Assembly (NCBI GenBank): GCA_958296105.1
Contig: OY282441.1
Span: 405,800 to 469,799, forward strand
From: an uncultured Dehalococcoidia bacterium
GTDB lineage: Bacteria; Chloroflexota; Dehalococcoidia; Lucifugimonadales; UBA1123
Length of the DNA: 64,000 nucleotides
Direction: 5' to 3'
Position numbers and translations under genes: made by a program. Below, piece after piece: positions 37,785-62,288 of the stretch (position 1 is its first letter; the number at the start of each line of letters is the position of its first letter). The notes beneath the pieces were generated by a model. It was not told where the DNA came from. It saw only the letters and a program-made list of their open reading frames with translations, and did not search any database.

Positions 37785-38597
37785 CCCATCCCATAAATGC
37801 CTGAGCAAGATGACGATGCGCACGATATGAACGAAGTCGAGGCAGCTGCCGGCATGGTACTCATACCTGATCGCCAAGCCTGCGGAAGCTGCCCAACCAG
37901 AGGCGAACAGCCTCTCGACCCAGCGTATCCTGTAACGTCGCAACGGTCGTCCGTCCTGAGTCGTGGGCATCTTGCGATTGCGTCTGTGAGGCGCGATCAT
38001 GTCGATCCCTCTGTTATCGAGCGCAGCATCCTAGGGGGCGGCGGAGTCGTAAGCGCGATCACCGATGAGTTCGGGGCAGCTCGTCTACCAGCCTGCATTC
38101 CCAACGTGGCCTCTACGAATCTGACCTCATAAGGCGGTGTGTACGGGGAGACGGGGAGACGGGAAGACCAGAGCGGTCTGCCACTGCCATGAGCTTCGTA
38201 CCCTGCCCCGCTTGGTCTTTCCAGCCTGTTTTGGCGCTGCGAAAGTGCCGTCTATGAAACATTAGCTCAGATCGAGCCTGCCCCTGTCATGCAGGTATTC
38301 CGTCAGAGCGCAGAGGACTTGCTCCAAGGCGCCATCGTTCACCCATCCGGAAGCGACGGTGGCAGGTCTGGTATGAGGGGTATCGGTCGGGTAGATCACA
38401 CCAAGGCGCGCCTGTTCTGGGTATCCATAGAATACCTCCAGCGCCTCTCGACTCGAACGTCAAGCTCTGCCACCGTCCATCGCTTCGTCTGGGGCAGCTC
38501 GGCAAGAGGAGGACACCGCCAGCCACTGCTCATCTGTAGGGTCCACTGATCATCCTCCCAACGAGCAGATCACCACCACAGCCTATTTATGAAATGG
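37785..38597 (-). mobile_element. decayed IS5-family (IS427/IS1031-like) insertion sequence, ~0.8 kb, transposase pseudogenised
   Basis: Minus-strand fragments lie in three frames with stops. They read [59 protein letters not shown] and IAPHRRNRK...RYRIRWVERLFA...LAIRYEYHAGSCLDFVHIV. Imperfect terminal inverted repeats are CATTTATGGGATGGG and TATTTATGAAATGGC. A 10-nt direct repeat TGGCTTCTAG sits at 37775-37784 and 38595-38604. Confidence 0.8.
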
Positions 38598-38801
38598 CTT
38601 CTAGACGATTCGAGTAACCGCCTAGAAGCGCGGGGGCCATGCGGCATCGGTTCTCTGAGAGATGCCGCTCAACGGGGACTTGCGCCAAGGGACAGGGACA
38701 CCCAGCCCCGATCCAACCCATGGATGTGTGGTACACGATGGGAGAGATTGATTACTTTCCCCACCGTTGCTAAACTTGAGTCCAAACAGAGTCTGGAACG
38801 T

Positions 38802-38875
38802 GTCCCTGTAGCTCAGCTGGATAGAGCGGCTGCCTTCTAAGCAGCGGGTCGCGGGTTCGAATCCTGCCAGGGACG
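38802..38875 (+). tRNA. tRNA-Arg (TCT)
   Basis: Acceptor GTCCCTG/CAGGGAC, D arm GCTC-AGCTGGATA-GAGC, anticodon loop CTTCTAA, T arm GCGGG-TTCGAAT-CCTGC. CCA is not encoded. Confidence 0.9.
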
Positions 38876-39226
38876 CTCCATACTTGACACCCACATGATA
38901 GGCTTCATACTCACTTCCACGCTGTCCTGACGTTCGCCAATCTCCAATATAACTATCTAAATATATCGTGAATCCGACTGCGCACCACGTGATAACCCCC
39001 AACTTCAATATTGCGCATTTCCGAATATGCCATGTATATATCTTCCCAAAAAATCTAAATATCTGCATATGCGGGATGGACTGTTTCGCGTCCATCCCCA
39101 CAGTGGGAACGCGCCCCCAAACCTCTAAAGCCCCTTCAGGCGAATGGGGATATATCGGCTAGATTCATGCTCGGATCACTGGATTACGCCATCAGGATAA
39201 ATCGGGATAAGGAATAAGCTCGGATT

Positions 39227-39907
39227 ATGTTGCGCGGTGAAAGCATGAGTGGCGATAATTTCAGCGACCGTCTCTGGCAGATGGCCTCTCCGATATGGCA
39301 GGCTATCGAGCGCCACCCGTTTCTGATGGAGCTGGAAGCGGGGACGCTGCCGCTGGATAGGTTCCGATACTACGTCCTTCAGGACTATCTCTACCTCGGC
39401 GCGTTTGGACGCTCGGCCGCCGCCGCTCTGTCGCTCGCGCCCGATACGGAAACCGCTAGAAGGCTGCTGAAGCGGGTATCCACCCCGGTCGAGAGACCAC
39501 TTCACGCCGGCCTGTTCGATGCGCTCGGCGTGACACAGGATGACGTCGACTCCTGCGTACCCTCCCCCACCAATCTCGCTTACATGAACCATATAGAGGT
39601 CTCGATGCGGTTGGACGGCCTCGCCTGCGGAGTTGCCGCGCTGCTGCCGTGTCCGCGCATCTACCACGAGGTGGGCAGGATACTGAAGAAACCCGATCAC
39701 CATATCTATGAGATATGGCAGTCTTCCTACGCCGAAGGGCTGCTCGAACAGAGCTCCGCCGCGTGGTCCTCCCTCGTTGACGATATGGCGCGCGCCTCCG
39801 GCCCCGCCGTCAGGGACGGGATGGCGCAGGCTTATTTGACTAGCGCGCGCTATGAGCATATGTTTTGGACAATGGCGTACAATTGCGAGCGCTGGCCTGT
39901 GGAGTGA
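39227..39907 (+). CDS. tenA: thiaminase II / aminopyrimidine aminohydrolase (TenA family)
   Basis: [46 protein letters not shown]. The likely start is the ATG at 39245. Confidence 0.85.
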
Positions 39908-39963
39908 GCCGACAACCGTCTTACGAACAGCCGCCGGCGCCAAATCTACGAATGGAGGGCAAA

Positions 39964-41451
39964 ATGAGCCCACGCAGGTTCGCAGGAACCGTAAACGCGC
40001 CGGACTTTCCGGACGATCTCGACTGGCTGAACTCGGACAGGCCGCTGAAGATAGCGGACTTCGGCGGGAAGATCCTCATACTGGACTTCTGGACGTACTG
40101 TTGAATCAACTGCATGAATGTATTTCCGCAGTTGCGGAAACTGGAGCAGAAGTACGCGGGTGAGCTTGCCGTCGTGGGCGTTCACTCCGCCAAGTTCAAC
40201 GCGGAGAAGGCCACCGACAACGTGCGCAAAGCCATACTCCGCTACGAGATAGAACACCCCGTAGTCAACGACGCCGACTTCCGCGTATGGCAAGACTACG
40301 CAGTTCGCGCATGGCCCACGCTGATGTTCGTCGGGCCGGATGGCAGGGTCATCGGCAAGCACGAGGGCGAGTTCCCCATAGACGCGCTCGACAGCGTTCT
40401 ATCCACCATGATCGACGAGTACGACGAATACGGTCAGATCGAGCGCGCTCCCCTGCACTTCAAGCTAGAAAGTGAGAAGGAGTGGGAAAGGCCGCTGTCG
40501 TTCCCAGGCAAGGTTCTCGCCACCGAGCGCGGCCTGTTCGTATCCGACTCGAATCACAACCGCATCGTCTGGACAGACCTGAACGGCGTGGTCAAGGCGA
40601 TAATCGGTTCAGGGGAAACCGGACTGAAGGACGGGCGCGCGAACGAAGCCTCGTTCCACGACCCGCAGGGCTGCGACCTCGACTACCCCATGCTCTACGT
40701 CGCAGACACCAAGAACCACGCGATCAGGGCAATAGACCTCGAATCGCTCGAAGTCAGGACCATCGCCGGCACCGGCGAGCAGGCCAGAGGCTTCCGCACC
40801 GGCGGCGGCAACGCGCGCTTCGTTGCGCTCAACTCGCCCTGGGACGTGGAGAAGGTCGGCAATACGCTGTACATCGCCATGGCCGGCTTCCACCAGCTCT
40901 GGAAGCTCGATCTGACTGGCAGGACGGTCGGCATCCATGCGGGCAACGGGCGCGAGAGAATCACGGACGGCCCGCTGCAAAGAGCCGAGCTTGCGCAGCC
41001 GAGCGGCATAGTCAGCGACGGCAAGACCATCTACTTCGCCGACAGCGAAACCAGCTCGATCCGCCAAGCGGCCATCGACCCTATGGGTTCGGTGGATACT
41101 CTGGTCGGGCTGGACCTGTTCACCTTCGGAGACGTGGACGGCATAGGCGATCAGGTCAGACTCCAGCACCCCATCGGCATCGAGCTTTACGAGCGTGTCC
41201 TGTGGATAGCGGACACGTACAACAACAAGATCAAGCGGCTGGATCCCGATTCGCGCCTGTGCCGCGCGGCGTTCGGCTCCGGAGCGGTCGGAAGCGAAGA
41301 CGGAGACGCGGCGCAAGCCACGTTCTCCGAGCCCGGCGGAATCAGCGCCCATCAGGGCAAGCTGTACATAGCCGACACCAACAGCCACCTCATCCGAGTT
41401 GCAGATCTCGATTCCAAGCGGGTCGAGACCATCGAGATAAGGGGAACGTGA
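39964..41451 (+). CDS. thioredoxin-like domain + NHL-repeat protein with in-frame TGA (40102-40104) in the redox motif; candidate selenoprotein, otherwise a pseudogene
   Basis: ORFs 39865-40104 and 40114-41451 are in the same frame. Read-through gives [21 protein letters not shown], followed by a Trx fold and five NHL-like repeats ([76 protein letters not shown]). GGAGGG lies upstream of the ATG at 39964. Confidence 0.6.
40123..40140 (+). promoter_or_regulatory. SECIS-like hairpin downstream of the in-frame TGA
   Basis: UUUCCGC-AGUU-GCGGAAA: a 7-bp stem with a G-containing tetraloop, starting 18 nt after the UGA. Confidence 0.4.
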
Positions 41452-43514
41452 GCGCAGCGCAAATGCCCAACCGTCTTTCCTCAGAGACCAGCCCATACCT
41501 GCTTCAGCACGCCGACAACCCCGTGGACTGGTATCCGTGGGGCGAGGAGGCGTTCGAGGAGGCGCGCAGGCGCGACGTCCCCATCATGCTCAGCGTGGGC
41601 TACTCATCGTGCCACTGGTGCCACGTCATGGAGCGGGAGTCGTTCGAGAATCCCGCCACCGCCGCGCTGATGAACGAGCGCTTCGTCAACGTAAAGGTGG
41701 ACCGCGAGGAGCGGCCAGACGTGGACTCGGTTTACATGACGGCGGTTCAGGCGCTGACCGGACACGGCGGCTGGCCGATGACCGTCTTTATGACCGCGGA
41801 CGGCGAGCCGTTCTACGGCGGAACGTACTTCCCGCCTGACGACAGGGGCGGCCTGCCCGCATTCCCGCGCGTTCTGGAGGCGATCTCGAACGCTTTCACC
41901 GCCAGACGCTCGGACGTCATGTCCACCAGCAGGCAGCTCGTCGAGAGAATCGGTCAAACCTTCGCCGCAGAGCGCGGCGTCGATCCTCTGACGGACGGCG
42001 TCGCGCGCTCCGCGTTCCACACGCTTTCCAGCCAGTTCGACGGCGCATCCGGCGGCTTCGGAATTCAGCCCAAGTTTCCACAGCCCGCCACTCTCGAATT
42101 CCTGCTGCGCTGCCACGTCAGGACAGGCGCGCCCCAGCCCCTCGAAATGGTGGAGCTTACGCTGGACAGGATGGCTGCCGGCGGCATACACGACCAGATC
42201 GGGGGAGGCTTCCACCGCTACTCCACAGACGCCTTCTGGCTGGTTCCCCACTTCGAGAAAATGCTGTACGACAACGCTCTGCTTGCTTCGCTGTACACCC
42301 GCGCCTGGCAGGTGACGGGAAACGCGCAGTACGGCGCCGTGGCTCAGGGAGTCGTGGACTACGTTCTCAGGGAGATGACTTCGCCGGACGGCGGCTTCTA
42401 CTCGGCGCAGGACGCCGACAGCGAGGGCGTGGAGGGCAAGTTCTTCGTGTGGCGACCCGAGCAGCTGGCGGCGATTCTGGGCAGAGACACCGCCTCCATC
42501 GTCGCAGACTACTACGGAGTCACCAGAGAGGGCAACTTCGAGGGAATGTCCATCCTGAACGTCCCACGTCCCGCGGCGCAGGTCGCCGCGCGCCACTCGA
42601 TGGCGGAATCCGATCTGACGTCGCTCGTCGAATCGGCGAATGCCAAACTGCTGGAAGCGCGCTCGGAGCGCGTCCCGCCGATGACGGACACGAAGATCAT
42701 CACCGCGTGGAACGGGCTGATGCTGGCGGCGGTGGCGGAGGCCGCAGCCGCCTTCGACAGGTCGGACTACCTAGAAGCAGCGCGCGCCAACGCCGCGTTC
42801 CTGCTGAGCCGCATGAGTCGAGACGGGCGGCTGAGAAGGACGGACAGCGCATCCGAAAACGGCGCGATGGGATTCTTGGACGACCACTCAGCGCTCGTCA
42901 GCGGCCTGCTCGCGCTCCACCGCGCAGACGGCGACCCTGCCTGGCTGCTGGAAGCCGAAAGGCTTGCTCGGCGGACGATAGACCTGTTCCGGGACCCGCT
43001 GCGCGAGCAGCTCTTCGACACGGGGAGCGATCAGGAGAGCCTGATAGTCCGCCCGCGAGACGTGACGGACAACGCCCTGCCCTCCGGCCACTCGATGATG
43101 GCGGACGCGCTGATTCGCCTCTCCTCGATCACTGGCGACCACGATCTGCGCTCGATAGCCGCAAGCGCGCTCAGGGGCGTGCGCGGAATCATGGCGCAGT
43201 TCCCCACAGGCGCCGGTCACTGGCTTTGCGCCCTAGACTCGTATCTCTCGGAGTCGAAAGAGGTCGTCATAGTGACCGGGTCGCAGTCTTCGGACGCCAG
43301 GCCGATGCTGCGCCGCATCGCCTCGGATTACCACGCAGGGGCGGTCGTCGTTGCCGCGCCTGAGTCGGATGCAGAGCGAAGCGACTGGCCCATCTTCCGG
43401 GGTCGCTCCGCCACTGATGGAAAACCCACCGCATACGTCTGCCGCAGCTACGCCTGCCGCCTTCCCACCACCGACGCCGATACCATGATGACGGAGCTTG
43501 CGCGGCTGGACTGA
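41448..43514 (+). CDS. yyaL: thioredoxin-domain protein YyaL (DUF255 / SSP411-like)
   Basis: [22 protein letters not shown]...[16 protein letters not shown] plus a six-hairpin glycosidase-like C-domain. The GTG at 41448 overlaps the upstream stop; the ATG at 41463 is an alternative. Confidence 0.9.
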
Positions 43515-43778
43515 AGCGATTCGGAGGAGACCGTCGCGCCACAATCCCCGAACGACTCGCTCGCTCGCGCAGTAAGTGAGGCGGCTTCTGCGCCGATGAT
43601 AAGCTGCTCCAGTCGCCGAACACGAAGGCGATGCGCCAGCTGCCGCATACGCGAACGCTCCACTGAGATAGAGCGCAACGCTCATGCGCGGCGATGCGAG
43701 CGGAATCTATCTACCAAGTCGCGCCCGTGTTGCGCTGGCTCTTGGGATAATCTACTATTGTCTCTCGGAGCGAGACGC

Positions 43779-45230
43779 ATGACCTTAGATATGAATTCGA
43801 TCATCCCGCAGCTCCAAGCCGTCGTGGGCGCGGAGTACGTCATCCACAAGCCCGAAGACCTCATCGTGTTCGAGTACGACGGCTCCGTGGACCGCGCGCT
43901 TCCGACCGTCGTAGCCCTGCCGGACAGTGCCGAACAGGTCTCCGAATGCGTCAAGATCGCGGAGCGGAGCGGTCTGCCCATCGTGGCGCGGGGGGCAGGC
44001 ACGGGGCTGAGCGGCGGAGCGGTCGCCGAGCATGGCGGACTCGTGCTGGCGATGACTCGCATGACGCGCATCCTCGAAGTGGACGTGGAGAACCGAGTCG
44101 CCATAGTCGAGCCCGGCGTGGTCAACCTGCATCTGTCCGAGCAGGTCTCCAAACACGGCCTGTACTTCGCGCCCGACCCGTCCAGTCAGCGCGCCTGCAC
44201 TATCGGCGGCAACGTTGCCGAAAACTCCGGCGGCCCCCACTGTCTCGCCTACGGCGTCACCACCAACCACGTTCTCGGTCTCGAAGTGGTGTACGCGGAC
44301 GGCGGAATCGAATGGGTCGGCGGCATCCACCGCGAATCTCCCGGCTTCGATCTCAGGGGAATCATCATCGGATCCGAGGGGACGCTGGCCATCGTCACCA
44401 AGATAGCCGTCCGCCTGCTGCGCCAGCCCGAAGCGGTCAAGACGCTCTTGGCGGTGTTCAGCGAGCTGGACGACGCGAGCGCGGCGGTGTCGGGCATCAT
44501 CGGAGCGGGCATCGTTCCAGCGGCAATAGAGATGATGGACGAGCTTTGCATCAGCGCAGCCGAGGCCGCAGTTCACGCCGGATACCCCGAAGGCGCGGGC
44601 GCCGTCCTGCTCGTGGAGGTGGACGGACTCGCGGAGGCCGTGGAGGAGGAGGTCGCGGCGGTCGAGGAGGTCTGCAACCTGTACGATCCGCTCGAAATCA
44701 GGACAGCCACCGATCCGGTCGAGCGCGAAAAGCTGTGGTCCGGGCGCAAGGGCGTTCTCGGCGCGCTCGGACGTCTCGCGCCCAACTACCTGCTGGTGGA
44801 CGGCACCGTTCCAAGAACGCGGCTGGTGGAGACGCTCTCTCGAATAAAGGGCATCTCCGAGCGGACGGGATACCCAATCGCCAACCTGCTGCACGCCGGA
44901 GACGGCAACCTGCACCCCTCCGTTCTGTTCGACGAACGGAAGCCGGGAGATACCGAGGCGGCGCTGAAGATAGGCGGCGAGATACTCGAGCTGTGCGTCG
45001 AGGTGGGCGGCGTCCTGTCTGGCGAACACGGGATCGGGCTGGAGAAGCAGGAGTACATGCCGCTCATGTTCACGGACGCGGACATGGACGTCATGGCGCG
45101 GCTGAGGCCTTCGTTCTCCACGAACAACATCTTCAACCCCGGAAAGATATTCCCGACCGGGGCGTCCTGCTCGGACATCAGACAGATGGCTGCGGCGATA
45201 CAGCGCGCCGGGCCGGGCGCTTATGTCTAG
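43779..45230 (+). CDS. glcD: glycolate oxidase subunit GlcD (FAD-linked oxidase)
   Basis: ARGAGTGLSGGAV FAD-binding motif and GEHGIGLEK near the C-terminus. Confidence 0.9.
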   Translation: MTLDMNSIIPQLQAVVGAEYVIHKPEDLIVFEYDGSVDRALPTVVALPDSAEQVSECVKIAERSGLPIVARGAGTGLSGGAVAEHGGLVLAMTRMTRILEVDVENRVAIVEPGVVNLHLSEQVSKHGLYFAPDPSSQRACTIGGNVAENSGGPHCLAYGVTTNHVLGLEVVYADGGIEWVGGIHRESPGFDLRGIIIGSEGTLAIVTKIAVRLLRQPEAVKTLLAVFSELDDASAAVSGIIGAGIVPAAIEMMDELCISAAEAAVHAGYPEGAGAVLLVEVDGLAEAVEEEVAAVEEVCNLYDPLEIRTATDPVEREKLWSGRKGVLGALGRLAPNYLLVDGTVPRTRLVETLSRIKGISERTGYPIANLLHAGDGNLHPSVLFDERKPGDTEAALKIGGEILELCVEVGGVLSGEHGIGLEKQEYMPLMFTDADMDVMARLRPSFSTNNIFNPGKIFPTGASCSDIRQMAAAIQRAGPGAYV

Positions 45231-45236
45231 CGCGCC

Positions 45237-46547
45237 ATGCCGACAGATTCCCTTATGATCACCCGGCATCTGCGAACGCGCGATGACCTTGCGAGCTCGA
45301 CCATAGACGGCGTGGAGCCGATCTCGGCAGTCGCGCCGTCCAGCGAGGACGAGCTGCGCGAAGTCGTGGGCGCGGCGGATGGCGAACGCCTCGCGCTGTA
45401 CCCGCGCGGCGGCGGAACGCGCATCGGGCTGGGCGGAATTCCCGCGCGCCCCGGAATAGTGGTGGACATGACGAGGCTCAACCGCGTGGCGGCGCACAAC
45501 GCCGGAGACCTCACCGCCACGTTCCAAGCGGGGGCCAATATGCGGATGGTCGCCGAGACGCTGGCGCAGCAGGGGCAGATGCTCGCGCTCGACTCTCCCC
45601 TGCCCGCGCGCTCCACGATCGGCGGGACGCTCGCCACCGGTCTCAGCGGGGCGCTCAAGTGGCACATGGGCCACGCCAGAGATACCGTCATAGGCATGAG
45701 GGTCGTGCAGCCGAACGGCTCGGTCACCAAGAGCGGCGGCCAAGTCGTGAAGAACGTCAGCGGCTACGACATGTCCCGTCTTCACATCGGCGGACTGGGC
45801 AGCCTCGGCGTCATACTGGAAGCCAGTTTCAAGCTGACGCCGATTCCGATGTACGAGCGCACGATACTGGCATCGTTCGACTCGCTGGAAGGCGCGATGG
45901 ACGTCTCCATGAGTGTGTTCAACTCCCACGTCATGCCGCTGGCGCTGGCGTCTTTCGGAGATTCGACGGCGCGGCTCATGGACGTCGATCCCGCGCGCCC
46001 GGGATCCCACGTCGCGTTTCGGCTTGGGGGAAGGCCGCGCACGCTGGATCGGCAGGTGGATGACGTGGTGAAGGCGTGCCGAGAGGCGCGCGCGGCTCAC
46101 ATCGGCGAATCGCCCACGCCCAGACTGTGGCGCGCGATCTCCGACTTCGGATGGGACGCCGATTCCCTCCCCGATCTGGGCATGAGGATAACTGCCCTGC
46201 CCAGCCAGACGGGGGACGTCATCGCCGCAGTCGAGGGCTGCGCCGCTCCGGATATGGAAGTGGCTTGGCTGGCGCATCCGGGATTCGGCACGGTGGAAGG
46301 CGCGTGGCTTGGCGCTAGCTCCGAAGGCGCCAGCGCGGAAGACCTAATTGACATAATCTCCGAAGCCAGAAGGCGCGTCCTCACGCTGGGGGGGTGGGCC
46401 ATAGTCCTGCGCTGTCCGACTGAGGTCAAGCGCAGAGTCGACGTTTGGGGCGGCGAGCCGCGAGGGTCGAGCGTGATGCGCGAGCTGAAGGCTCAGTACG
46501 ATCCGAACGACACCATGAACCCAGGCCGATACGTGGGGGGCATCTGA
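45237..46547 (+). CDS. glcE: glycolate oxidase FAD-binding subunit GlcE
   Basis: FAD_binding_4-like N-terminus (YPRGGGTRIGLGG, VKNVSGYD). It sits between glcD and glcF. Confidence 0.8.
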   Translation: MPTDSLMITRHLRTRDDLASSTIDGVEPISAVAPSSEDELREVVGAADGERLALYPRGGGTRIGLGGIPARPGIVVDMTRLNRVAAHNAGDLTATFQAGANMRMVAETLAQQGQMLALDSPLPARSTIGGTLATGLSGALKWHMGHARDTVIGMRVVQPNGSVTKSGGQVVKNVSGYDMSRLHIGGLGSLGVILEASFKLTPIPMYERTILASFDSLEGAMDVSMSVFNSHVMPLALASFGDSTARLMDVDPARPGSHVAFRLGGRPRTLDRQVDDVVKACREARAAHIGESPTPRLWRAISDFGWDADSLPDLGMRITALPSQTGDVIAAVEGCAAPDMEVAWLAHPGFGTVEGAWLGASSEGASAEDLIDIISEARRRVLTLGGWAIVLRCPTEVKRRVDVWGGEPRGSSVMRELKAQYDPNDTMNPGRYVGGI

Positions 46548-47881
46548 TGGTCGAGGCGAAACACGGAGAGGCGCGCATAGCCCCCGATTTCCTGTTCTCG
46601 GGGCCGGACGCGCCGGAAGAGTCCGACCTGTACAAGTGCGTCCACTGCGGATTCTGCCTTCAGGCGTGTCCGACGTATCTGGAGACGGGCCTAGAAACCG
46701 AATCGCCGCGCGGACGGATCGCGCTGATGAAGGCGGTGAACGAAGAACGGATCGGCATGACGGATTCGGTAATCAGGCACTGGGACTTGTGTATCCAGTG
46801 TCGGGCGTGCGAGGTGGCGTGTCCGTCCGGCGTTCCATACGGCAGCCTGATAGAGGCGACGATGGCGCAGGTGGAGCGCCGCCGCAAGCCGGGAGCGCTG
46901 GCGCGGTTTGCGGAGAACGTGTCGCTGAACCACGTCCTCCCGCATCAGGGCAGGCTGAAGCTGCTCATGTCGGCGGCGAAGGCTTATCAGCGCTCCGGGG
47001 CGCAGTCGCTGGTTCGCAAATCGGGCGTCCTGAGACGTCTCGCGCCCTCGCTGGCGGACATGGAAGCGTCCATGCCGCGCGTGTCCTCCACCTACTTCAG
47101 CGCGAAGGGGCAGACGGTGGAGGCGGAAGGAGAAGCTCGCGCGCGGGCTGCCATTCTATCCGGCTGCGTCATGCCCTTGGTGAACGGTCCCGAGATGGAT
47201 GCGGTGGTCAGGGTACTGGCGCGAAACGGCTGCGAAGTGGTCGCGCCCGAGCGACAGGTCTGCTGCGGCGCGATCCACTCCCACGTTGGATATCTGGACG
47301 CCGCTAGGAAGATGGCGCGCCGAAACATAGACGTCTTCTCCGAAGCGGGCGTCGACGCCGTCGTGGTCGCCTCCGCCGGCTGTGGATCGCGGATGAAGGA
47401 GTACGCCCATCTTCTGCGAGACGATCCGCAATACTCGGAAAAGGCGCGGCGCTTCTCGGATATGGTCAAGGATATTCACGAATTCTTGGTGGAGCTGCCG
47501 TTCGTCCCGCCGCGCGCCGCGCTCGATTGCAGGGTCACGTATCAAGACTCGTGCCACCTCGCAAACGCTCAGCGGATAACGTCTGCGCCGCGCCGAATTC
47601 TGGACTCGATCCCCGGGATGGAGTTCGTGGAGCTGCCCAACGCGGGCCGCTGCTGCGGCGCGGGCGGCACGTATACGATAACCGAGCGCGAATTCTCGCT
47701 GCGCGTGCTGAATTCCAAGATGGACGATTTCGAAACGACGGGCGCGGACGTGCTGACGACCGCCAACCCCGGATGTCTGATGCAGCTTCAGTACGGGATC
47801 GCCGAGCGCGGCCTGCCCGCGCAGGTCAAGTACGTGACCGATCTGCTGGACGAGGCTTACAGACGTGAGAGAAGTGGCTAG
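46547..47881 (+). CDS. glcF: glycolate oxidase iron-sulfur subunit GlcF
   Basis: Two 4Fe-4S motifs (CVHCGFCLQACP, CIQCRACEVACP) and two CCG domains. The ATG overlaps the glcE stop (ATGA). Confidence 0.9.
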   Translation: MVEAKHGEARIAPDFLFSGPDAPEESDLYKCVHCGFCLQACPTYLETGLETESPRGRIALMKAVNEERIGMTDSVIRHWDLCIQCRACEVACPSGVPYGSLIEATMAQVERRRKPGALARFAENVSLNHVLPHQGRLKLLMSAAKAYQRSGAQSLVRKSGVLRRLAPSLADMEASMPRVSSTYFSAKGQTVEAEGEARARAAILSGCVMPLVNGPEMDAVVRVLARNGCEVVAPERQVCCGAIHSHVGYLDAARKMARRNIDVFSEAGVDAVVVASAGCGSRMKEYAHLLRDDPQYSEKARRFSDMVKDIHEFLVELPFVPPRAALDCRVTYQDSCHLANAQRITSAPRRILDSIPGMEFVELPNAGRCCGAGGTYTITEREFSLRVLNSKMDDFETTGADVLTTANPGCLMQLQYGIAERGLPAQVKYVTDLLDEAYRRERSG

Positions 47882-55616: not shown

Positions 55617-55805
55617 ATGCCCAAAGTCCGAGAAGCCATGCGCTTGGTTCGGCAGGATGGGTGGTACCTTGCACGGACACGCGGCAGCCACCGCATATAC
55701 CACCATGCGCAGAAGTCGGGAAGCGTTGTGATAGCGGGTCATCCGAGTGAGGACATGAAGCCGAAAACATGGGACACCGTATTGAAACAGGCGGGCCTAA
55801 AATGA
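55617..55805 (+). CDS. hicA: HicA family mRNA-interferase toxin, cassette 1
   Basis: MPKVREAMRLVRQDGWYLARTRGSHRIYHH...IAGHPSEDMKPKTWDTVLKQAGL. This is the canonical HicA length and GSH motif. Confidence 0.9.
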   Translation: MPKVREAMRLVRQDGWYLARTRGSHRIYHHAQKSGSVVIAGHPSEDMKPKTWDTVLKQAGLK

Positions 55806-56188
55806 AGAAGACCGTGAAACTCAGGTACGCGGTAGTTTTCGAGAAAGCTCCCAACAACTACTGTGCATACGTTCCGGAGCTGCCCGGCTGCGTCGGCACG
55901 GGCAAGACTTGGGAGAAGATGCTGGCGATGATACAGGAAGCCATGGAGCTTTACATCGAAGGCATGATGGAGTGTGGCTACCGAGTTCCCATGCCGCGCA
56001 TGTCGCTCGCCAAGGCGATGGCGCACCACATATCACTGGACGATGACTACTACAACCCCGATCTTGGCATCTACGAGAAGTCTGAATATGAGGAGGAAGA
56101 GACGAGCTTCAAGTTCGTGGAGGTCGAGGTCGACCTGCCGCTGGCGAAGGTCGCCGCCGAGCCTGCGGGCGTCGGAGAGCGTCGGTAG
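55802..56188 (+). CDS. hicB: HicB family antitoxin, cassette 1
   Basis: YAVVFEKAPNNYCAYVPELPGCVGTGKTWEKMLAMIQEAMELYIEG is the HicB N-domain. The ATG overlaps the hicA stop (ATGA). Confidence 0.85.
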   Translation: MKKTVKLRYAVVFEKAPNNYCAYVPELPGCVGTGKTWEKMLAMIQEAMELYIEGMMECGYRVPMPRMSLAKAMAHHISLDDDYYNPDLGIYEKSEYEEEETSFKFVEVEVDLPLAKVAAEPAGVGERR

Positions 56189-56191
56189 GCA

Positions 56192-56380
56192 GTGCCAAAG
56201 GTCAGAGAAGCCATACGCAGGATTCGGCGGGACGGATGGTACTACGTTCGGACGCGGGGGAGTCATAGGCAATACAAGCATCCACATAAGCCCGGAAAAG
56301 TCACCATAGCGGGGCATCCGGGGGAAGATTTGTCGAAAGGCATGTTCAAAGAAATCCTGAAACAAGCCGGCATCAGGTAA
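56192..56380 (+). CDS. hicA: HicA family toxin, cassette 2
   Basis: MPKVREAIRRIRRDGWYYVRTRGSHRQYKH...IAGHPGEDLSKGMFKEILKQAGI. The GTG start lies 3 nt after the hicB1 stop. Confidence 0.9.
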   Translation: MPKVREAIRRIRRDGWYYVRTRGSHRQYKHPHKPGKVTIAGHPGEDLSKGMFKEILKQAGIR

Positions 56381-56393
56381 AGAGGAGTTCGGC

Positions 56394-56762
56394 GTGAAAT
56401 ACGCAGTCGTGATAGAGAAATGCCCAAACAATTACGGGGCATATGTTCCCGATTTGCCGGTTTGCGTAGCTGCCGCAAAGACAAGGAGCGAGACGCTCAA
56501 GTTGATCCGCGAGGGAATCGGGTATCATATCGAGTTCATCATGGAGGACGGCGACCCCGTTCCCGAACCGCGCATGTCGCTGACGGACGCGATGGTGGAC
56601 TATCTCTCCACAGGCGACGGATACCGCGACCCCGAAACTGGCGTCTATGAGAAGTACGACTACGAGGATACGGAGGTCACTTTCGTCATGGTGGAGGTGG
56701 AGGTCGACCTGCCGTTGGCGAAGGTCGCCGCCGAGCCTGCGGGCGTCGGAGAGCGTCGATAA
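56394..56762 (+). CDS. hicB: HicB family antitoxin, cassette 2
   Basis: MKYAVVIEKCPNNYGAYVPDLPVCVAAAKTRSETLKLIREGIGYHIEF. AGAGGAG lies upstream of the GTG. Confidence 0.85.
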   Translation: MKYAVVIEKCPNNYGAYVPDLPVCVAAAKTRSETLKLIREGIGYHIEFIMEDGDPVPEPRMSLTDAMVDYLSTGDGYRDPETGVYEKYDYEDTEVTFVMVEVEVDLPLAKVAAEPAGVGERR

Positions 56763-56765
56763 GCA

Positions 56766-56944
56766 GTGCCAAAAGTCAGAGAAGCCATACGCTTAGTTCG
56801 GGGTACTACGTTCGGACGCGGGGAAGCCACCGCATATATCACCATGTGCAGAAGCCGGGAATCGTTGTGATAGCGGGTCATCCGGGAAAAGACCTATCCA
56901 AAGATACATGGGACAGCATTTTGAAGCAGGCCGGTCTCAAGTGA
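56766..56944 (+). pseudogene. hicA pseudogene, cassette 3 (10-nt deletion, frameshift)
   Basis: 179 nt versus 189 nt. ...CGCTTAGTTCGG|GGTACTAC lacks the 10 nt coding the (Q/R)DGW region. Frame 0 stops after 34 codons. The old frame still reads YYVRTRGSHRIYHHVQKPGIVVIAGHPGKDLSKDTWDSILKQAGLK*. Confidence 0.85.
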
Positions 56945-56956
56945 AGGGAATTCGGT

Positions 56957-57325
56957 ATGAAGTACGTAGCGGTAATCGAGAGATGCCCAAACAATTACAG
57001 CGCATACGTTCCCGAATTGCCGGGCTGCATAGCCGCCGCAGACGCGAGGGACGAGACGATCGAGTTGATCCGCGAGGGAATCGGGTATCACATTGAGTTC
57101 ATGGTGGAGGACGGCGACCCCGTTCCCGAACCGCGCATGTCACTGACGGAGGCGATGGTGGACTATCTCTCCACAGGCGACGGATACAGCGATCCCGAAA
57201 CTGGCGTCTATGAGAAGTACGACTACGAGGATACGGAGGTCACCTTCGTCATGGTGGAGGTCGAGGTCGACCTGCCGTTGGCGAAGGCCGCTGCCGAGCC
57301 TGCGGGCGTCGGAGAACGTCGGTAG
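56957..57325 (+). CDS. hicB: HicB family antitoxin, cassette 3
   Basis: MKYVAVIERCPNNYSAYVPELPGCIAAADARDETIELIREGIGYHIEF. Intact. Confidence 0.85.
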   Translation: MKYVAVIERCPNNYSAYVPELPGCIAAADARDETIELIREGIGYHIEFMVEDGDPVPEPRMSLTEAMVDYLSTGDGYSDPETGVYEKYDYEDTEVTFVMVEVEVDLPLAKAAAEPAGVGERR

Positions 57326-57328
57326 GCA

Positions 57329-57507
57329 GCGTCCAAAGTCAGAGAAGCCATACGCAGGATTCGGGGTACTACGTTCGGACGCGGGGAAGCCACCGCATAT
57401 ATCACCATGTGCAGAAGCCGGGAATCGTTGTGATAGCGGGTCATCCGGGAAAAGACCTATCCAAAGATACGTGGGACAGCATTTTGAAGCAGGCCGGTCT
57501 TAAGTGA
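57329..57507 (+). pseudogene. hicA pseudogene, cassette 4 (same 10-nt deletion, start codon also lost)
   Basis: Same deletion junction as cassette 3. GTGCCAAAA is changed to GCGTCCAAA at the start position. Confidence 0.85.
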
Positions 57508-57519
57508 AGGAAATTCGGT

Positions 57520-57900
57520 ATGAAGTACGTAGCGGTAATCGAGAGATGCCCAAACAATTACAGCGCATACGTTCCCGAATTGCCGGGCTGCATAGCCGCC
57601 GCAGACGCGAGGGACGAGACGCTCGAGTTGATCCGTGAGGGAATCGCAGTTTACATCGAAGCTCTGATCGAGTTTGACGAGCCGCTTCCGGAGCGGCGCA
57701 TATCGCTGACGGAGGCGATGGCGGACTATCTCTCCACAGGCGACGGTTACCACGATCCCGAAACTGGCGTCTATGAGAAGTACGATTACGAGGATACGGA
57801 GGTCGCCTTCGTCATGGTGGAGGTCGAGGTCGACCTGCCGTTGGCGAAGGTCGCCGCCGAGACGGGCAGCCGCCTCGAGGTGAGCGCGGCCGGAACATAG
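57520..57900 (+). CDS. hicB: HicB family antitoxin, cassette 4
   Basis: Same N-terminus as cassette 3, a diverged middle (AVYIEALIEFDEPLPERRISL) and a different C-terminal end (AAETGSRLEVSAAGT). Confidence 0.85.
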   Translation: MKYVAVIERCPNNYSAYVPELPGCIAAADARDETLELIREGIAVYIEALIEFDEPLPERRISLTEAMADYLSTGDGYHDPETGVYEKYDYEDTEVAFVMVEVEVDLPLAKVAAETGSRLEVSAAGT

Positions 57901-57924: not shown

Positions 57925-59181
57925 TTGGAAAAGAGATGCGCCGTGCCAGAGTTTTTCAACGTTCGATCTCCGGCGCGGGCGCTGGCGGATTTACTGCCGC
58001 GCCTGACGCCAATCGAAGGCCGCGAGACGGTTCCGACGACCGAGGCGCTGGGGCGCATCGTGGCGCGGGACGTCCGCTCGCCAGAGGACCTTCCAACGTT
58101 CGCGCGCTCGGCGATGGACGGCTATTCGGTTCGCGCGCGCGATACGTTCGGGGCGTCCGAGAGTCTGCCTGCGCTGCTGGAAGTCGTCGCCGACATTCCG
58201 ACCGGGCAGACATCCGACATCGAGATCGGCACGGGCGAGGCGGTGGTGGCATACACCGGCGGGACGCTGGCGAAGGGGACGGATGCGGTGGTCATGGTCG
58301 AGCGAACTCAGCCGGCGGATGAGAGATCCATAGAGGTCTTGCGACCGGTCGCGCCGGGCGAGAACGTGATTCAGGTCGGCGAGGACGTTCGCAAGGGTGA
58401 GGTCGTCCTGAAAAGGGGCCGCCGTCTGCGCGCTCAGGATGTCGGCGGACTGCTGGCGCTGGGGATTGTCGAAACGGAGGTCTTGCGCCGTCCGAAGGTG
58501 GGGATAATCTCCACGGGGGACGAGCTGGCAGCGCCTAGCGAGACGCCGCCGCCGGGCAAGGTGCGCGACATCAACACCTATACCATCGCGGCGCGGGCGG
58601 CGCAATGCGGCGCGGATGCGCTCGCGCTCGGACTTTTGCCGGACGTGTACGAGGCGCAGCTGGCAGCGGCGCGCGAGGGGCTGAAGTCGGTGGACGCGCT
58701 GATCTTCTCGGCGGGCAGCTCGCTGAGTACGCGAGACATGACGGCGCGGGTATTCGATGCGCTCGGAGAACCCGGCGTGCTGACGCACGGCATATCCATA
58801 AAGCCGGGCAAGCCGACCATCGTGGCGGTTGCGGACGGCAAGCCGCTGTTCGGTCTGCCGGGCAACCCGGTATCGGCGCTGGTGGTGTTCGACCTGCTGG
58901 CCGCGCCCGCTCTCAGGGTTCTCTCTGGAGAGACGGGCCAATCACTCTCCCCTGCCATCTCCGCGCTCCTGACAGAGGACGTGCCATCCGAGTCTGGGCG
59001 TGAGGATTTTTTTCCGGTAAGGCTGTCCGAATCCGACGGCGCGGTTTCCGCATCGCCGATTTTCGGCAAGTCGAATCTGATATACACGCTGGTCGACTCT
59101 GACGGCATAGCGCGCGTTCCACCTGAATCCGGCGGATTGTATGCTGGGGAGGTCGTAGAAGTACTGATATATAAAACCTGA
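57925..59181 (+). CDS. moeA: molybdopterin molybdenumtransferase MoeA
   Basis: MoeA N/MoCF/C-domain pattern (SAMDGYSVRA, ISTGDEL, LPGNPVSA). Confidence 0.9.
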   Translation: MEKRCAVPEFFNVRSPARALADLLPRLTPIEGRETVPTTEALGRIVARDVRSPEDLPTFARSAMDGYSVRARDTFGASESLPALLEVVADIPTGQTSDIEIGTGEAVVAYTGGTLAKGTDAVVMVERTQPADERSIEVLRPVAPGENVIQVGEDVRKGEVVLKRGRRLRAQDVGGLLALGIVETEVLRRPKVGIISTGDELAAPSETPPPGKVRDINTYTIAARAAQCGADALALGLLPDVYEAQLAAAREGLKSVDALIFSAGSSLSTRDMTARVFDALGEPGVLTHGISIKPGKPTIVAVADGKPLFGLPGNPVSALVVFDLLAAPALRVLSGETGQSLSPAISALLTEDVPSESGREDFFPVRLSESDGAVSASPIFGKSNLIYTLVDSDGIARVPPESGGLYAGEVVEVLIYKT

Positions 59182-59405
59182 AGCGGTAATTTATCGCTTG
59201 TGTTAGGTATTTTGACCGACTGCGCCCGACTAGGCTCGGTCGTGCAATGTCAGAAGACTGACAAATCACCCGGATAGCCTCGATACGACGCTGAACAACG
59301 ATCACAAGAATCTGACGTATACTCTCGGTCGCTTCATCGAAGTCGTCACGCCGGATATAGACGCACCCCAAGAAAAGTCGAACCAAGAAGACGCCTGATC
59401 ATACA

Positions 59406-61352
59406 ATGCCCCACCGCCACAGCCGCCGATACTATCTCCAAGACATCCCGCTAGACGAGGCTTTGCAAAAGTATCGGCGCGCGATGGACGACGCGGGCGC
59501 GATGGAGCGGACCGATGCCGAGAGCGTCCCCGTACAGGATGCGCTCGGCAGGATAACCGCCCTGCCCGTCTGGGCGCGCAGGTCTTCGCCACACTACGAC
59601 GCGGCGGCGATGGACGGCGTGGCGGTGAGGTCGGCGGACACGGTGGGCGCGTCCGAGGTCTCTCCCCTGCCCCTCTCGATTCCGCGCAGCGCGCGATGGG
59701 TCGATACCGGAGACCCGGTGCCGGACGGGTTCGACGCCGTGATAATGGTCGAGGTGGTCACCGAGCTGGACGACTCGACCATCGAAATCAGGGCGTCCGT
59801 TCCGCCGTACAGCCACGTGCGGCCGCTTGGCGAAGACATCGTCGCCTCCGAGCTTCTGCTTCCGGAGAGCCATCGGCTGCGACCCGCCGATCTGGGCGCG
59901 TGCGCGGCTGCGGGCGTGATTGATCTTGCCGTTCGCAGAAAGCCGACCGTCGCCATCGTCCCAACCGGGTCGGAGCTGGTCGCACCCGAGCGCGAACCCG
60001 CTCCGGGTGAGATAGTGGAGTTCAACTCGCTGACTCTGGCGGGAATGCTCACGGAGTGGGGCGCGGCCCCTGTCCGCCTCTCGCCGATTCCCGACGACCC
60101 TGCACTGCTGAAGGCGGCGATGCTGGACGCGGCGCGGCGGTTCGACGTCGTCTTGATCAACGCCGGGTCTTCGGCGGGCGCGGAAGACTACACCGCTGCG
60201 ACTATCGAGGAGCTGGGCGAGCTCGTGGCGCACGGGGTGGCGATACGCCCCGGCCATCCGATAGCGCTCGGAATCGTCGAGGGAAAGCCCGTGATTGGGA
60301 TTCCAGGCTATCCCGTATCGGCGGCGGTGGCCTGCGAGCTGTTCGTTCAGCCAATCGTCGAGGCTATGCTCGGACGCCGCGCGAGCGCGAACCCCAGTGT
60401 GACCGCCACCGTCACGCGCCGAATTCAGTCTCCAATGGGCGAGGACGAGTTTCTGAGAGTCAGGCTCGGACAGGTGGGAGTCAGGCTCGTGGCAACGCCG
60501 CTTCAGCGCGGCGCGGGCGTGATAACGTCGCTAGTCAGGGCGGACGGCATCGCACTGATTCCGAGAATGTCGGAGGGAATCGAGGCTGGATCGGAGGTGA
60601 GCGTCCGCCTGCTCAAGCCCATAGAGGACACGCGCAGGACGATCGTAGCCATAGGCAGCCACGACCTGATCCTCGACCTGATGGCGAGCAAACTCGGCGG
60701 CGATGCGAACGGCGTATCTCTGTCGTCCGCCAACGTGGGCAGTCTGGGCGGACTGCTGGCGATTCGGCGCGGGGAGGCTCACGTGGCAGGCGCGCACCTG
60801 CTGGACGAAAAGACGGGCGAGTACAACGTCTCCTACATCGAGCGGTACGCCGGCGGCAAGGAGGTCGCGCTGGTGAATCTCGCCGGAAGGTCGCAGGGGC
60901 TGATGGTCGCGCCCGGCAATCCGCTCGCTGTCCGCTCGCTGTCCGATCTGGCGAGGGGCGAGGTCAGGTTCGCCAACCGCCAGCGCGGATCGGGAACGAG
61001 GATGCTCTTGGACTATCGGCTGCGGGAAGAGGGCATCAGCCCCGATGCCATCAGGGGGTACGAGCGGGAGGACTACACCCATCTGGCGGTTGCCGCTGCG
61101 GTCGAGGGCGGGCGCGCCGACGCCGCGCTGGGAATACTGCCCGCGGCGAGGGCATTCGGCCTAGACTTCATCGCCCTGTTCGACGAGCGATACGATCTGG
61201 TGATCCCAATGGAGTTCTACGAGAGCGACCTTCTCCGTCCCGCTCTGGAGCTAATCCGCTCGGATGACTTCCAGCGCGAGGTGGAATCGCTCGGCGGCTA
61301 CAGCGTCAGCGAGATGGGCAGACTTATGGGGGTGATTGGCGGCGCGAGCTGA
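59406..61352 (+). CDS. MoeA-like molybdopterin biosynthesis protein fused to a periplasmic-binding-protein-like (molybdate/tungstate-binding type) domain
   Basis: The N-terminal ~410 aa are MoeA-like (AAMDGVAVRS, VPTGSEL, IPGYPVSA). The C-terminal ~230 aa are PBP-like (IGSHDLILD...RQRGSGTR). Confidence 0.85.
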   Translation: MPHRHSRRYYLQDIPLDEALQKYRRAMDDAGAMERTDAESVPVQDALGRITALPVWARRSSPHYDAAAMDGVAVRSADTVGASEVSPLPLSIPRSARWVDTGDPVPDGFDAVIMVEVVTELDDSTIEIRASVPPYSHVRPLGEDIVASELLLPESHRLRPADLGACAAAGVIDLAVRRKPTVAIVPTGSELVAPEREPAPGEIVEFNSLTLAGMLTEWGAAPVRLSPIPDDPALLKAAMLDAARRFDVVLINAGSSAGAEDYTAATIEELGELVAHGVAIRPGHPIALGIVEGKPVIGIPGYPVSAAVACELFVQPIVEAMLGRRASANPSVTATVTRRIQSPMGEDEFLRVRLGQVGVRLVATPLQRGAGVITSLVRADGIALIPRMSEGIEAGSEVSVRLLKPIEDTRRTIVAIGSHDLILDLMASKLGGDANGVSLSSANVGSLGGLLAIRRGEAHVAGAHLLDEKTGEYNVSYIERYAGGKEVALVNLAGRSQGLMVAPGNPLAVRSLSDLARGEVRFANRQRGSGTRMLLDYRLREEGISPDAIRGYEREDYTHLAVAAAVEGGRADAALGILPAARAFGLDFIALFDERYDLVIPMEFYESDLLRPALELIRSDDFQREVESLGGYSVSEMGRLMGVIGGAS

Positions 61353-61371
61353 CTTCTGATAGTCTGGATCC

Positions 61372-62016
61372 ATGATGGGAGAGCTTGCCATACCAGATTC
61401 TGAGGTCACCGCAGTCGTGCTGGCGGGGGGGATGAGCCGTCGGCTTGGGCGCAACAAGGCGCTGGAGCCGTTCGAAGGCGAGACTCTGATTCGTCGGGTC
61501 ATCGGGCGGATGAGACAGGTCTCGTCACGGATCGTAGTCGTAGTCAACAATCAGAGCCGCGTCGCGGAGCTGAGCCTTCCAGAGGATGTTCGCGCCGTCG
61601 TAGACGAGTACCCCAGTAGTGGCTCGCTAGGCGGCATCTTCAGCGGACTCCACGCCGCATCCACCGAATGGGCTGTCTTCTGCGCATGTGACATGCCCTT
61701 CCTCGACCCAGACCTGTACGCGATGCTGCTGTCGAATCGCGCCGGCTTCGATGCGGTCGTCCCCGTCTTGGGAGGGAGGCCGGAGCCAATACACGCCGCC
61801 TACTCCCGCCGCTGTCTCAAACCTATCCGCTCGAAAATTCTTGCGGACGACCTGAAGATCGCAGGGTTCTACGACGACGTGGCAGTTAGATACGTGGAGG
61901 AGGACGAGATTCGGGCGATAGACCCTCGCCTGCTGAGCTTTTTCAACATCAACACCGAGTCCGATCTACGCGCCGCATCCGCGCTCGCGGAGAAGGAGGC
62001 CCTCCCGTGCGCGTGA
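61372..62016 (+). CDS. mobA: molybdenum cofactor guanylyltransferase
   Basis: VVLAGGMSRRLG and the ACDMPFL motif. Confidence 0.85.
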   Translation: MMGELAIPDSEVTAVVLAGGMSRRLGRNKALEPFEGETLIRRVIGRMRQVSSRIVVVVNNQSRVAELSLPEDVRAVVDEYPSSGSLGGIFSGLHAASTEWAVFCACDMPFLDPDLYAMLLSNRAGFDAVVPVLGGRPEPIHAAYSRRCLKPIRSKILADDLKIAGFYDDVAVRYVEEDEIRAIDPRLLSFFNINTESDLRAASALAEKEALPCA

Positions 62017-62285
62017 CAGTCGAGCTGTTCGGACACGCTCGGCTGGTATCGGGCGTGCGCGAGGTGGAGGCGCGGATTCCGGCGCGCGCGGACTCATCGC
62101 ATATAGCCGCGGCGCTCGTCTCCGAAGCGCCTGCGCTGAGCGGAGTAGCTGTCTCGGAAGATGGCCGCTCACTCATGCCGAGCTACACTGCGAACCTGAA
62201 CGGATTGGCTTTCATTGGCGACGAACCCGTTTCGGTATCCAGCGGAGACAGAATCTACGTGTTCTCCAGTCAAGCCGGAGGATAG
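62007..62285 (+). CDS. moaD: MoaD/ThiS family sulfur-carrier protein
   Basis: 92 aa with the MRVTVELFGHARL start and a C-terminal GG (SSQAGG*). Confidence 0.75.
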   Translation: MRVTVELFGHARLVSGVREVEARIPARADSSHIAAALVSEAPALSGVAVSEDGRSLMPSYTANLNGLAFIGDEPVSVSSGDRIYVFSSQAGG

Positions 62286-62288
62286 ATC

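Follow-up and report, generated by a model that had tools for sequence, protein, structure and literature searches.

RESULTS

An In-frame TGA in the Redox Motif

Does a TGA codon within the redox motif of a thioredoxin-like protein end one gene, or does it code for selenocysteine (Sec) in the middle of it? The question is raised by a 64,000-nucleotide stretch of contig OY282441.1 from an uncultured Dehalococcoidia bacterium (referred to below as the window), in which two open reading frames (ORFs) of the same frame, 39865..40104 and 40114..41451, are parted by one TGA alone. An initial annotation, made from the letters of the DNA, had pointed out the two ORFs and proposed a selenoprotein; the ORFs, the motif, and all of its coordinates were found to be correct when the sequence was read again. 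When translation is followed from the ATG at 39964, the TGA at 40102-40104 interrupts a single frame of 495 codons (39964-41451). Comparison with related sequences makes it very probable that this is one gene, which codes for a cytoplasmic selenoprotein of 495 residues belonging to the NHLRC2/SOQ1 family, with a thioredoxin-like domain, a six-bladed NHL propeller, and Sec as the attacking residue of the CxxC center. The TGA at 40102-40104 is almost certainly a conserved Sec codon with an RNA hairpin signal of its own.

The nucleotides at 40087-40116 read TTC TGG ACG TAC TGT TGA ATC AAC TGC ATG, which translates to F-W-T-Y-C-stop-I-N-C-M, and the protein context around the TGA is L-D-F-W-T-Y-C-stop-I-N-C-M-N. 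Among the genes of the window, UGA is used as an ordinary stop more often than any other codon and ends 25 of the 44 genes that are supported by Pfam. A reassignment of the genetic code is excluded by this normal use of UGA.

Conservation of the TGA Codon among Relatives

The column of the TGA was read at the DNA level in 80 loci from species-representative genomes, which were found by tblastn. At the identical column, TGA is present in 42 loci and TGC or TGT in 38, and neither TAA nor TAG occurs in any of the 80. Such an alignment of orthologues had been named as a check in the initial annotation, and it reveals a clean exchange between TGA and Cys. The TGA carriers are mostly Dehalococcoidia, with a protein identity to the window gene that ranges from 77% down to about 52%. 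Further carriers are a Chloroflexia, a Thermomicrobia, an unclassified Chloroflexota, a Dormibacterota, and a Gemmataceae.

The tblastn matches in the relatives span residues 1-494 and run across the TGA. The 46 residues on the 5' side of the TGA are kept as protein in every TGA form (pattern NAPDFP..L.W.NT..PL), and no further stops or frameshifts were found in the TGA forms. The sequences 5' and 3' of the UGA are both under protein-coding constraint, in the same frame. The TGA forms are all placed in one clade of a distance tree. Because the TGA forms make up a single clade, the tree suggests that Cys was replaced by Sec once, followed by vertical descent together with some lateral transfer.

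A Hairpin Specific to the TGA Forms

A hairpin of seven base pairs with the loop AGUU, which had been noticed from the letters as starting 18 nucleotides past the UGA, is confirmed at 40123-40140. Its 5' arm covers 40123-40129, the loop 40130-40133, and the 3' arm 40134-40140, and the spacing between the UGA and the loop is 25 nucleotides. All seven pairs are formed in 38 of 41 TGA forms. The Cys forms never reach more than five of the seven pairs (39 of 39), and their hairpins have a mean minimum free energy (MFE) of -0.4 kcal/mol.

The codons that build the hairpin are nearly frozen in the TGA forms. The entropy at the third codon position is 0.56, 0.17, 0, 0, 0.28, and 0.66 bits for codons +7 to +12, compared with 1.0-1.8 bits for the same codons in the Cys forms, and the TGA forms are free to vary in the codons on either side of this block. 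The block CCG CAG TTG CGG is fixed in the TGA forms even at third codon positions, save for compensatory exceptions, which are CCC...GGG in L067, CUG...CGG in L045, and C...G at the outer pair in L041 and L046. Across 38 distinct TGA-form sequences, 98.5% of the cells of the 7-base pair helix are paired, and four of the seven pairs have changed on both sides. When the partner columns are slid by 1-3 positions, the pairing falls to 32-71%. The same helix is given independently by RNAalifold, and the AGUU loop with its closing C-G pair is invariant among the TGA forms.

The published model of a bacterial selenocysteine insertion sequence (SECIS) has a loop of 3-9 nucleotides, a stem of 4-16 base pairs, an MFE of -7.5 kcal/mol or lower, a G within the first two nucleotides of the loop, after which G or U is usual, and a distance of 16-37 nucleotides between UGA and loop (PMC13188914 Fig. 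2A). The window hairpin agrees with the model in all four respects, with a 4-nucleotide loop containing G and then U, 7 base pairs, a distance of 25 nucleotides, and an MFE of -8.8 kcal/mol. The model is satisfied by 39 of 42 TGA forms and by none of 39 Cys forms. The fit to the model, the covariation, and the absence from the Cys forms together bear out the proposal that the hairpin is a bacterial SECIS.

The hairpin resembles the classical bacterial SECIS (the Escherichia coli fdhF type and the bSECISearch consensus) in that it lies within the gene shortly past the UGA and has a small loop with G followed by U. It differs from the fdhF SECIS in its sequence, which is unrelated, and in the position of the key loop G, which is ~27 nucleotides past the UGA in the window gene and ~20 nucleotides in fdhF. 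Because the putative SECIS sits inside the coding sequence, the peptide encoded by the hairpin region is fixed as F-P-Q-L-R-K; the Cys forms have I/L-P-D-L-K-K.

TGA forms with the AGUU-loop hairpin were also observed in the Gemmataceae locus L045 and the Dormibacterota locus L049, both of which are nested within the Chloroflexota TGA clade. This placement suggests either that the gene and its SECIS were transferred laterally together or that the contigs were mis-binned.

Domain Architecture and Family Membership

The window protein is a member of the NHLRC2/SOQ1 family. Pfam assigns a Thioredoxin_8 domain (PF13905) to residues about 35-129 and an NHL beta-propeller to residues about 176-494, so that a Thioredoxin_8-type domain and the propeller are found in one chain, as in the family. 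The closest solved structure is the lumenal region of Arabidopsis SOQ1 (Protein Data Bank code 7DJJ, E=2e-120, residues 11-494), followed by human NHLRC2 (code 6GC1, E=3e-108, residues 10-491), and both matches are contiguous. The two alignments run across the TGA as DFWTYCCINCMH, with CCINC in both structures at the TGA site. An NHLRC2-like family of thioredoxin and NHL domains with a CCINC motif had been named in the initial annotation, with the TGA on the first, attacking Cys of C-I-N-C, which is the second Cys of the CC. Both points are upheld by the alignments, which span the motif.

The family motif CC(I/V)NC is present with the predicted Sec in place of the second Cys (C-U-I-N-C, compared with CCINC in Cys homologues). 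The longer motif DFWTYC-C/U-INCMH and a conserved WPT (cis-Pro) loop are shared with SOQ1 and NHLRC2; unlike those proteins, the window gene has a UGA codon at the second Cys of CCINC. In NHLRC2, the motif is located at the N terminus of helix alpha-1, in a cleft that faces the propeller (PMC6107167). Homologues from Pyrinomonadaceae have G-C-I-N-C at the motif, which shows that the motif can do without the first Cys of the CC and that its core is C-I-N-C.

The TGA forms are all short (~495 amino acids) and do not have the hydrophobic N-terminal extension that is typical of most Cys forms. The selenoprotein also contains no HAD domain, membrane anchor, or signal peptide. Because a hydrophobic extension, an anchor, and a signal peptide are all absent, the protein is probably cytoplasmic. 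At the C terminus, the TGA forms end about 445-465 residues past the motif, and 27 of 39 Cys forms reach 574-637. A C-terminal domain of ~140 amino acids that is present in most Cys forms is missing in all TGA forms, and the beta-stranded domain at the C terminus of NHLRC2 and SOQ1 was not found in them. In this the window protein is unlike SOQ1, whose C-terminal domain is reported to have methionine-sulfoxide-reductase activity (bioRxiv 10.1101/2024.11.01.621559). The C-terminal domain is missing from most bacterial NHLRC2 homologues (PMC6107167) and is for this reason not part of the family core.

Selenocysteine Usage and Observations That Weigh against It

One carrier of a TGA form is documented as a user of Sec. 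Locus L024 belongs to Dehalococcoidia bacterium UBA1141, which has 49 selenoprotein genes and is among the ten most selenoprotein-rich bacteria in BSepDB, a database limited to species in which two or more Sec-pathway genes are present (PMC13326102). No other selenoprotein gene was found in the window, where two scans for in-frame TGA codons, one strict and one relaxed, gave antisense noise or the ordinary stops that part neighbors of the same frame, and nothing else. A motif-based scan of the flanks of the TGA-form loci for further selenoprotein genes gave only noise.

Several observations weigh against a selenoprotein with its own SECIS. The search for the Sec machinery covered the 64-kb window, out of a contig of roughly 3.18 Mb; no tRNA-Sec was found there by ARAGORN or by Rfam at gathering thresholds, which give a tRNA-His and two tRNA-Arg, and Pfam scans of about 55 ORFs revealed no SelA, SelB, or SelD. 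The flanks of 41 related loci likewise contain no tRNA-Sec. Since the TGA forms belong to one clade, the 42 occurrences are not independent origins. The hairpins of three TGA forms are weaker (-6.5 kcal/mol in L033, -6.6 in L050, and -4.2 in L058), and no curated Rfam SECIS family matches the region 40060-40200 with E up to 10. In addition, the local fold of 67 nucleotides is no more stable than that of shuffled sequence (z = -0.28), and the case for the hairpin consequently rests on the comparison across genomes. In that comparison, none of 500 shuffles reached the observed pairing values, a control that overstates the significance, as the TGA-form sequences are related members of a single clade. 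The contrast between the frozen codons of the hairpin and their free neighbors is not affected by this kinship.

Alternative Explanations for the TGA

It is improbable that the UGA is recoded to a residue other than Sec, either by a Sec-like tRNA that inserts Cys in dependence on SECIS and SelB or by near-cognate read-through (Trp, Cys, or Arg) that is stimulated by the hairpin. Some bacteria are known to have Sec-like tRNAs that carry Cys, and the comparative data reveal read-through and a role of the hairpin rather than the residue that goes in. However, the site is the classic position for the exchange of Sec and Cys in a CxxC center, and the hairpin fits the SECIS model of the SelB type. 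One of the TGA-form carriers is the Sec user with many selenoproteins described above (PMC13326102), and the insertion of Cys by means of a UGA and a costly hairpin brings no obvious advantage.

A split gene, in which a peptide of 46 residues ends at the TGA and a separate protein of 445 residues starts from the ATG at 40114, is more improbable still. The Met after the motif, which lies nine nucleotides past the TGA and is the start of hundreds of database calls of 444-446 amino acids, is also present in the Cys forms (CCINCMH) and so is part of the family motif. In L017, L032, L033, L045, L050, L059, and L067, the Met codon is replaced by a non-start codon (GCC, GTC, GCG, CTG, CAT, GTT, or CTC), and the seven genomes are a lower bound. 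Inspection of the sequence before the ATG at 40114 revealed no Shine-Dalgarno sequence comparable to that at 39954-39959, and the thioredoxin fold would be cut inside its CxxC center. The early remark that neither half of the gene is sensible alone thus holds, given the conserved 46 N-terminal residues and the non-start codons in at least seven genomes.

A pseudogene or a sequencing error, with the TGA as a disabling mutation or a miscalled Cys codon, is effectively excluded. One base change from TGC or TGT to TGA would be enough for it, and the gene is indeed split by gene callers. However, 42 genomes share the TGA at identities as low as about 52%, the protein is kept on both sides, a co-evolving hairpin occurs in the TGA forms only, and the further disabling mutations that were named at the outset as a sign of a pseudogene were looked for and none, neither stop nor frameshift, was found.

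Database Annotation and Relation to Known Selenoproteins

A protein search was performed against 5.8 billion proteins, and the best 120 clusters were examined. Among these, 88 clusters are calls of ~444-446 amino acids that begin at the Met just past the motif, and the 32 full-length matches all contain W-T-[YF]-C-C-I-N-C. GenBank entries comprise truncated proteins of 446 amino acids that are labelled 'alkyl hydroperoxide reductase'. Hundreds of database entries for the gene are cut at the putative Sec codon and misnamed in this way. Annotation pipelines will keep missing the gene, because no NCBIfam model reaches its cutoff for it.

CxxC proteins of the thioredoxin fold are well known to occur in Sec forms. 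In the other UxxC selenoproteins with this fold (thioredoxin, glutaredoxin, Prx-like thiol:disulfide oxidoreductase, and DsbA-like proteins), Sec is likewise situated at the attacking N-terminal Cys of the CxxC, and their Cys homologues are widespread (PMC9312934). The window protein differs from them in the fusion to a beta-propeller and in a Cys directly before the Sec (C-U-x-x-C).

A predicted 'Thiol-disulfide isomerase-like protein' family (Thioredoxin_8, UxxC) has been catalogued since 2005, in papers that mention no NHL propeller, CCINC, NHLRC2, or SOQ1 (PMC1088965, PMC9312934, PMC13188914). It shares the Thioredoxin_8 or TlpA-like domain and the UxxC position of the Sec with the window protein. 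The accessions in the matched clusters (MDE2688431.1, MXY46545.1, MYC06257.1, and MCY3543159.1) differ from the catalogued representatives MAK15852.1 and MGB1650493.1. Homology-based databases may already count the gene under 'Thiol-disulfide isomerase-like'. Within the library of papers that was searched, none connects bacterial selenocysteine to NHL repeats, NHLRC2, or SOQ1. The window gene possibly represents a new subfamily of the thioredoxin-fold CxxC selenoproteins. It is conceivable, if somewhat short of probable, that the Sec orthologues of NHLRC2/SOQ1 across the Dehalococcoidia and neighboring lineages make up a family not yet described as selenoproteins.

Neighboring Genes

The features of the locus are listed in Table 1. 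The gene that follows the predicted selenoprotein gene, yyaL, is probably co-transcribed with it in the window. The initial annotation had described the two as a small redox operon. The YyaL-like neighbor is indeed present, but the arrangement is synteny at the level of a lineage only, because yyaL lies beside the gene in 13 of 40 TGA-form loci, which are all from the closest relatives, and in no Cys-form locus (0 of 39). An earlier study likewise found no conserved operon for the bacterial NHLRC2 homologues (PMC6107167), and the 'redox operon' is a local arrangement, not a feature of the family.

TABLE 1
Features at the locus of the predicted selenoprotein gene
Feature	Coordinates	Strand	Evidence and remarks
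Shine-Dalgarno-like GGAGGG	39954-39959	+	Read from the sequence; 4 nucleotides 5' of the start codon
Predicted selenoprotein gene, 495 codons, Sec at codon 47, stop TGA 41449-41451	39964..41451	+	Pfam; structure alignments; tblastn across the TGA in relatives
Redox motif C-U-I-N-C (TGT TGA ATC AAC TGC), equivalent to CCINC of SOQ1/NHLRC2	40099..40113	+	Sequence; orthologue column; structure alignment
In-frame UGA, putative Sec codon, residue 47	40102..40104	+	TGA in 42/80 loci, TGC/TGT in 38, TAA/TAG in 0
SECIS-like hairpin in coding sequence, stem UUUCCGC/GCGGAAA (7 base pairs), loop AGUU	40123..40140	+	-8.8 kcal/mol; covariation; model fit
DUF255/Thioredox_DsbH (YyaL-like) thioredoxin-fold protein	41463..43514	+	PF03190, E=5e-76; 11 nucleotides past the selenoprotein stop

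The YyaL/DUF255 protein matches the NCBIfam selenoprotein model TsoB with 24.8 bits, compared with a cutoff of 805, and only in the N-terminal thioredoxin-like region. This match is probably due to a generic similarity of fold. On the 3' side of yyaL, three GlcD/GlcE/GlcF-like genes are present on the same strand at 43596-47881, two of which code for FAD-linked oxidases and the last for an Fe-S protein with CCG domains. A GlcD-like gene occurs in 3 of 40 TGA-form flanks, the reach of which is limited to 3 kb. About 1.1 kb on the 5' side of the predicted selenoprotein gene there is a tRNA-Arg(TCT) at 38802-38876, and the same tRNA is found upstream in ten related loci (L001-L010). The region around it, 37785-39226, contains no clear protein-coding gene.

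Farther along the window, four tandem paralogous ORFs of 139, 122, 122, and 126 amino acids are situated at 55769-57900, each with a HicB-like antitoxin domain and separated by intergenic gaps of ~195 nucleotides. No HicA-like toxin partner was seen for them. The region 57925-64000 contains a molybdenum/tungsten-cofactor cluster, which consists of MoeA, a MoeA-PBP fusion, MobA, a MoaD-like protein, and, cut off by the end of the window, an aldehyde:ferredoxin oxidoreductase. The MoaD-like protein, upstream of the oxidoreductase, ends in ...AGG and is followed by the TGA at 62283-62285. This TGA was considered as a Sec codon and rejected, as it is the normal stop of a MoaD-like protein that ends in GG.

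DISCUSSION

If the TGA at 40102-40104 is a Sec codon, the synthesis of the protein can be pictured by analogy with the known insertion of Sec in bacteria. Translation would start at the ATG at 39964. As the ribosome nears the UGA at 40102, the hairpin at 40123-40140, with its AGUU loop, would recruit SelB carrying Sec-tRNA(Sec), and Sec would be put in at the UGA in place of termination. By analogy with CCINC in NHLRC2, Sec-47 would be situated at the N terminus of helix alpha-1, in the cleft that faces the propeller. There it could act as the nucleophile of a thiol/selenol exchange and attack an oxidized substrate held by the propeller cleft, and Cys-50 would then resolve the selenenylsulfide intermediate.

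The exchange of Sec and Cys is a recognized marker of catalytic redox cysteines. At this locus it points to the second Cys of CCINC, which is Cys-90 of human NHLRC2, a member of the family that is linked to disease. NHLRC2 is essential and is mutated in FINCA disease; its biochemical function is unknown, and it was negative in an insulin-reduction assay (PMC6107167). In SOQ1, electrons move from a redox-active thioredoxin-like domain to the C-terminal domain, for which a reduction of methionine sulfoxide has been reported (bioRxiv 10.1101/2024.11.01.621559). If the present interpretation is true, the natural exchange of Sec and Cys would indicate, on evolutionary grounds, that the second Cys of CCINC acts as a redox nucleophile in catalysis. 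It would then bear on whether the thioredoxin-like domain of NHLRC2 is a redox enzyme, which has been doubted after the negative insulin-reduction assays. Moreover, the thioredoxin-like domain and the propeller would then form a core that suffices for catalysis by itself, without the C-terminal domain on which SOQ1 depends.

The gene is further a clear case of an RNA signal that shapes a protein, with the hairpin dictating the sequence FPQLRK. For the Dehalococcoidia, it would add a member to the unusually large selenoproteomes that some of these bacteria possess (PMC13326102).

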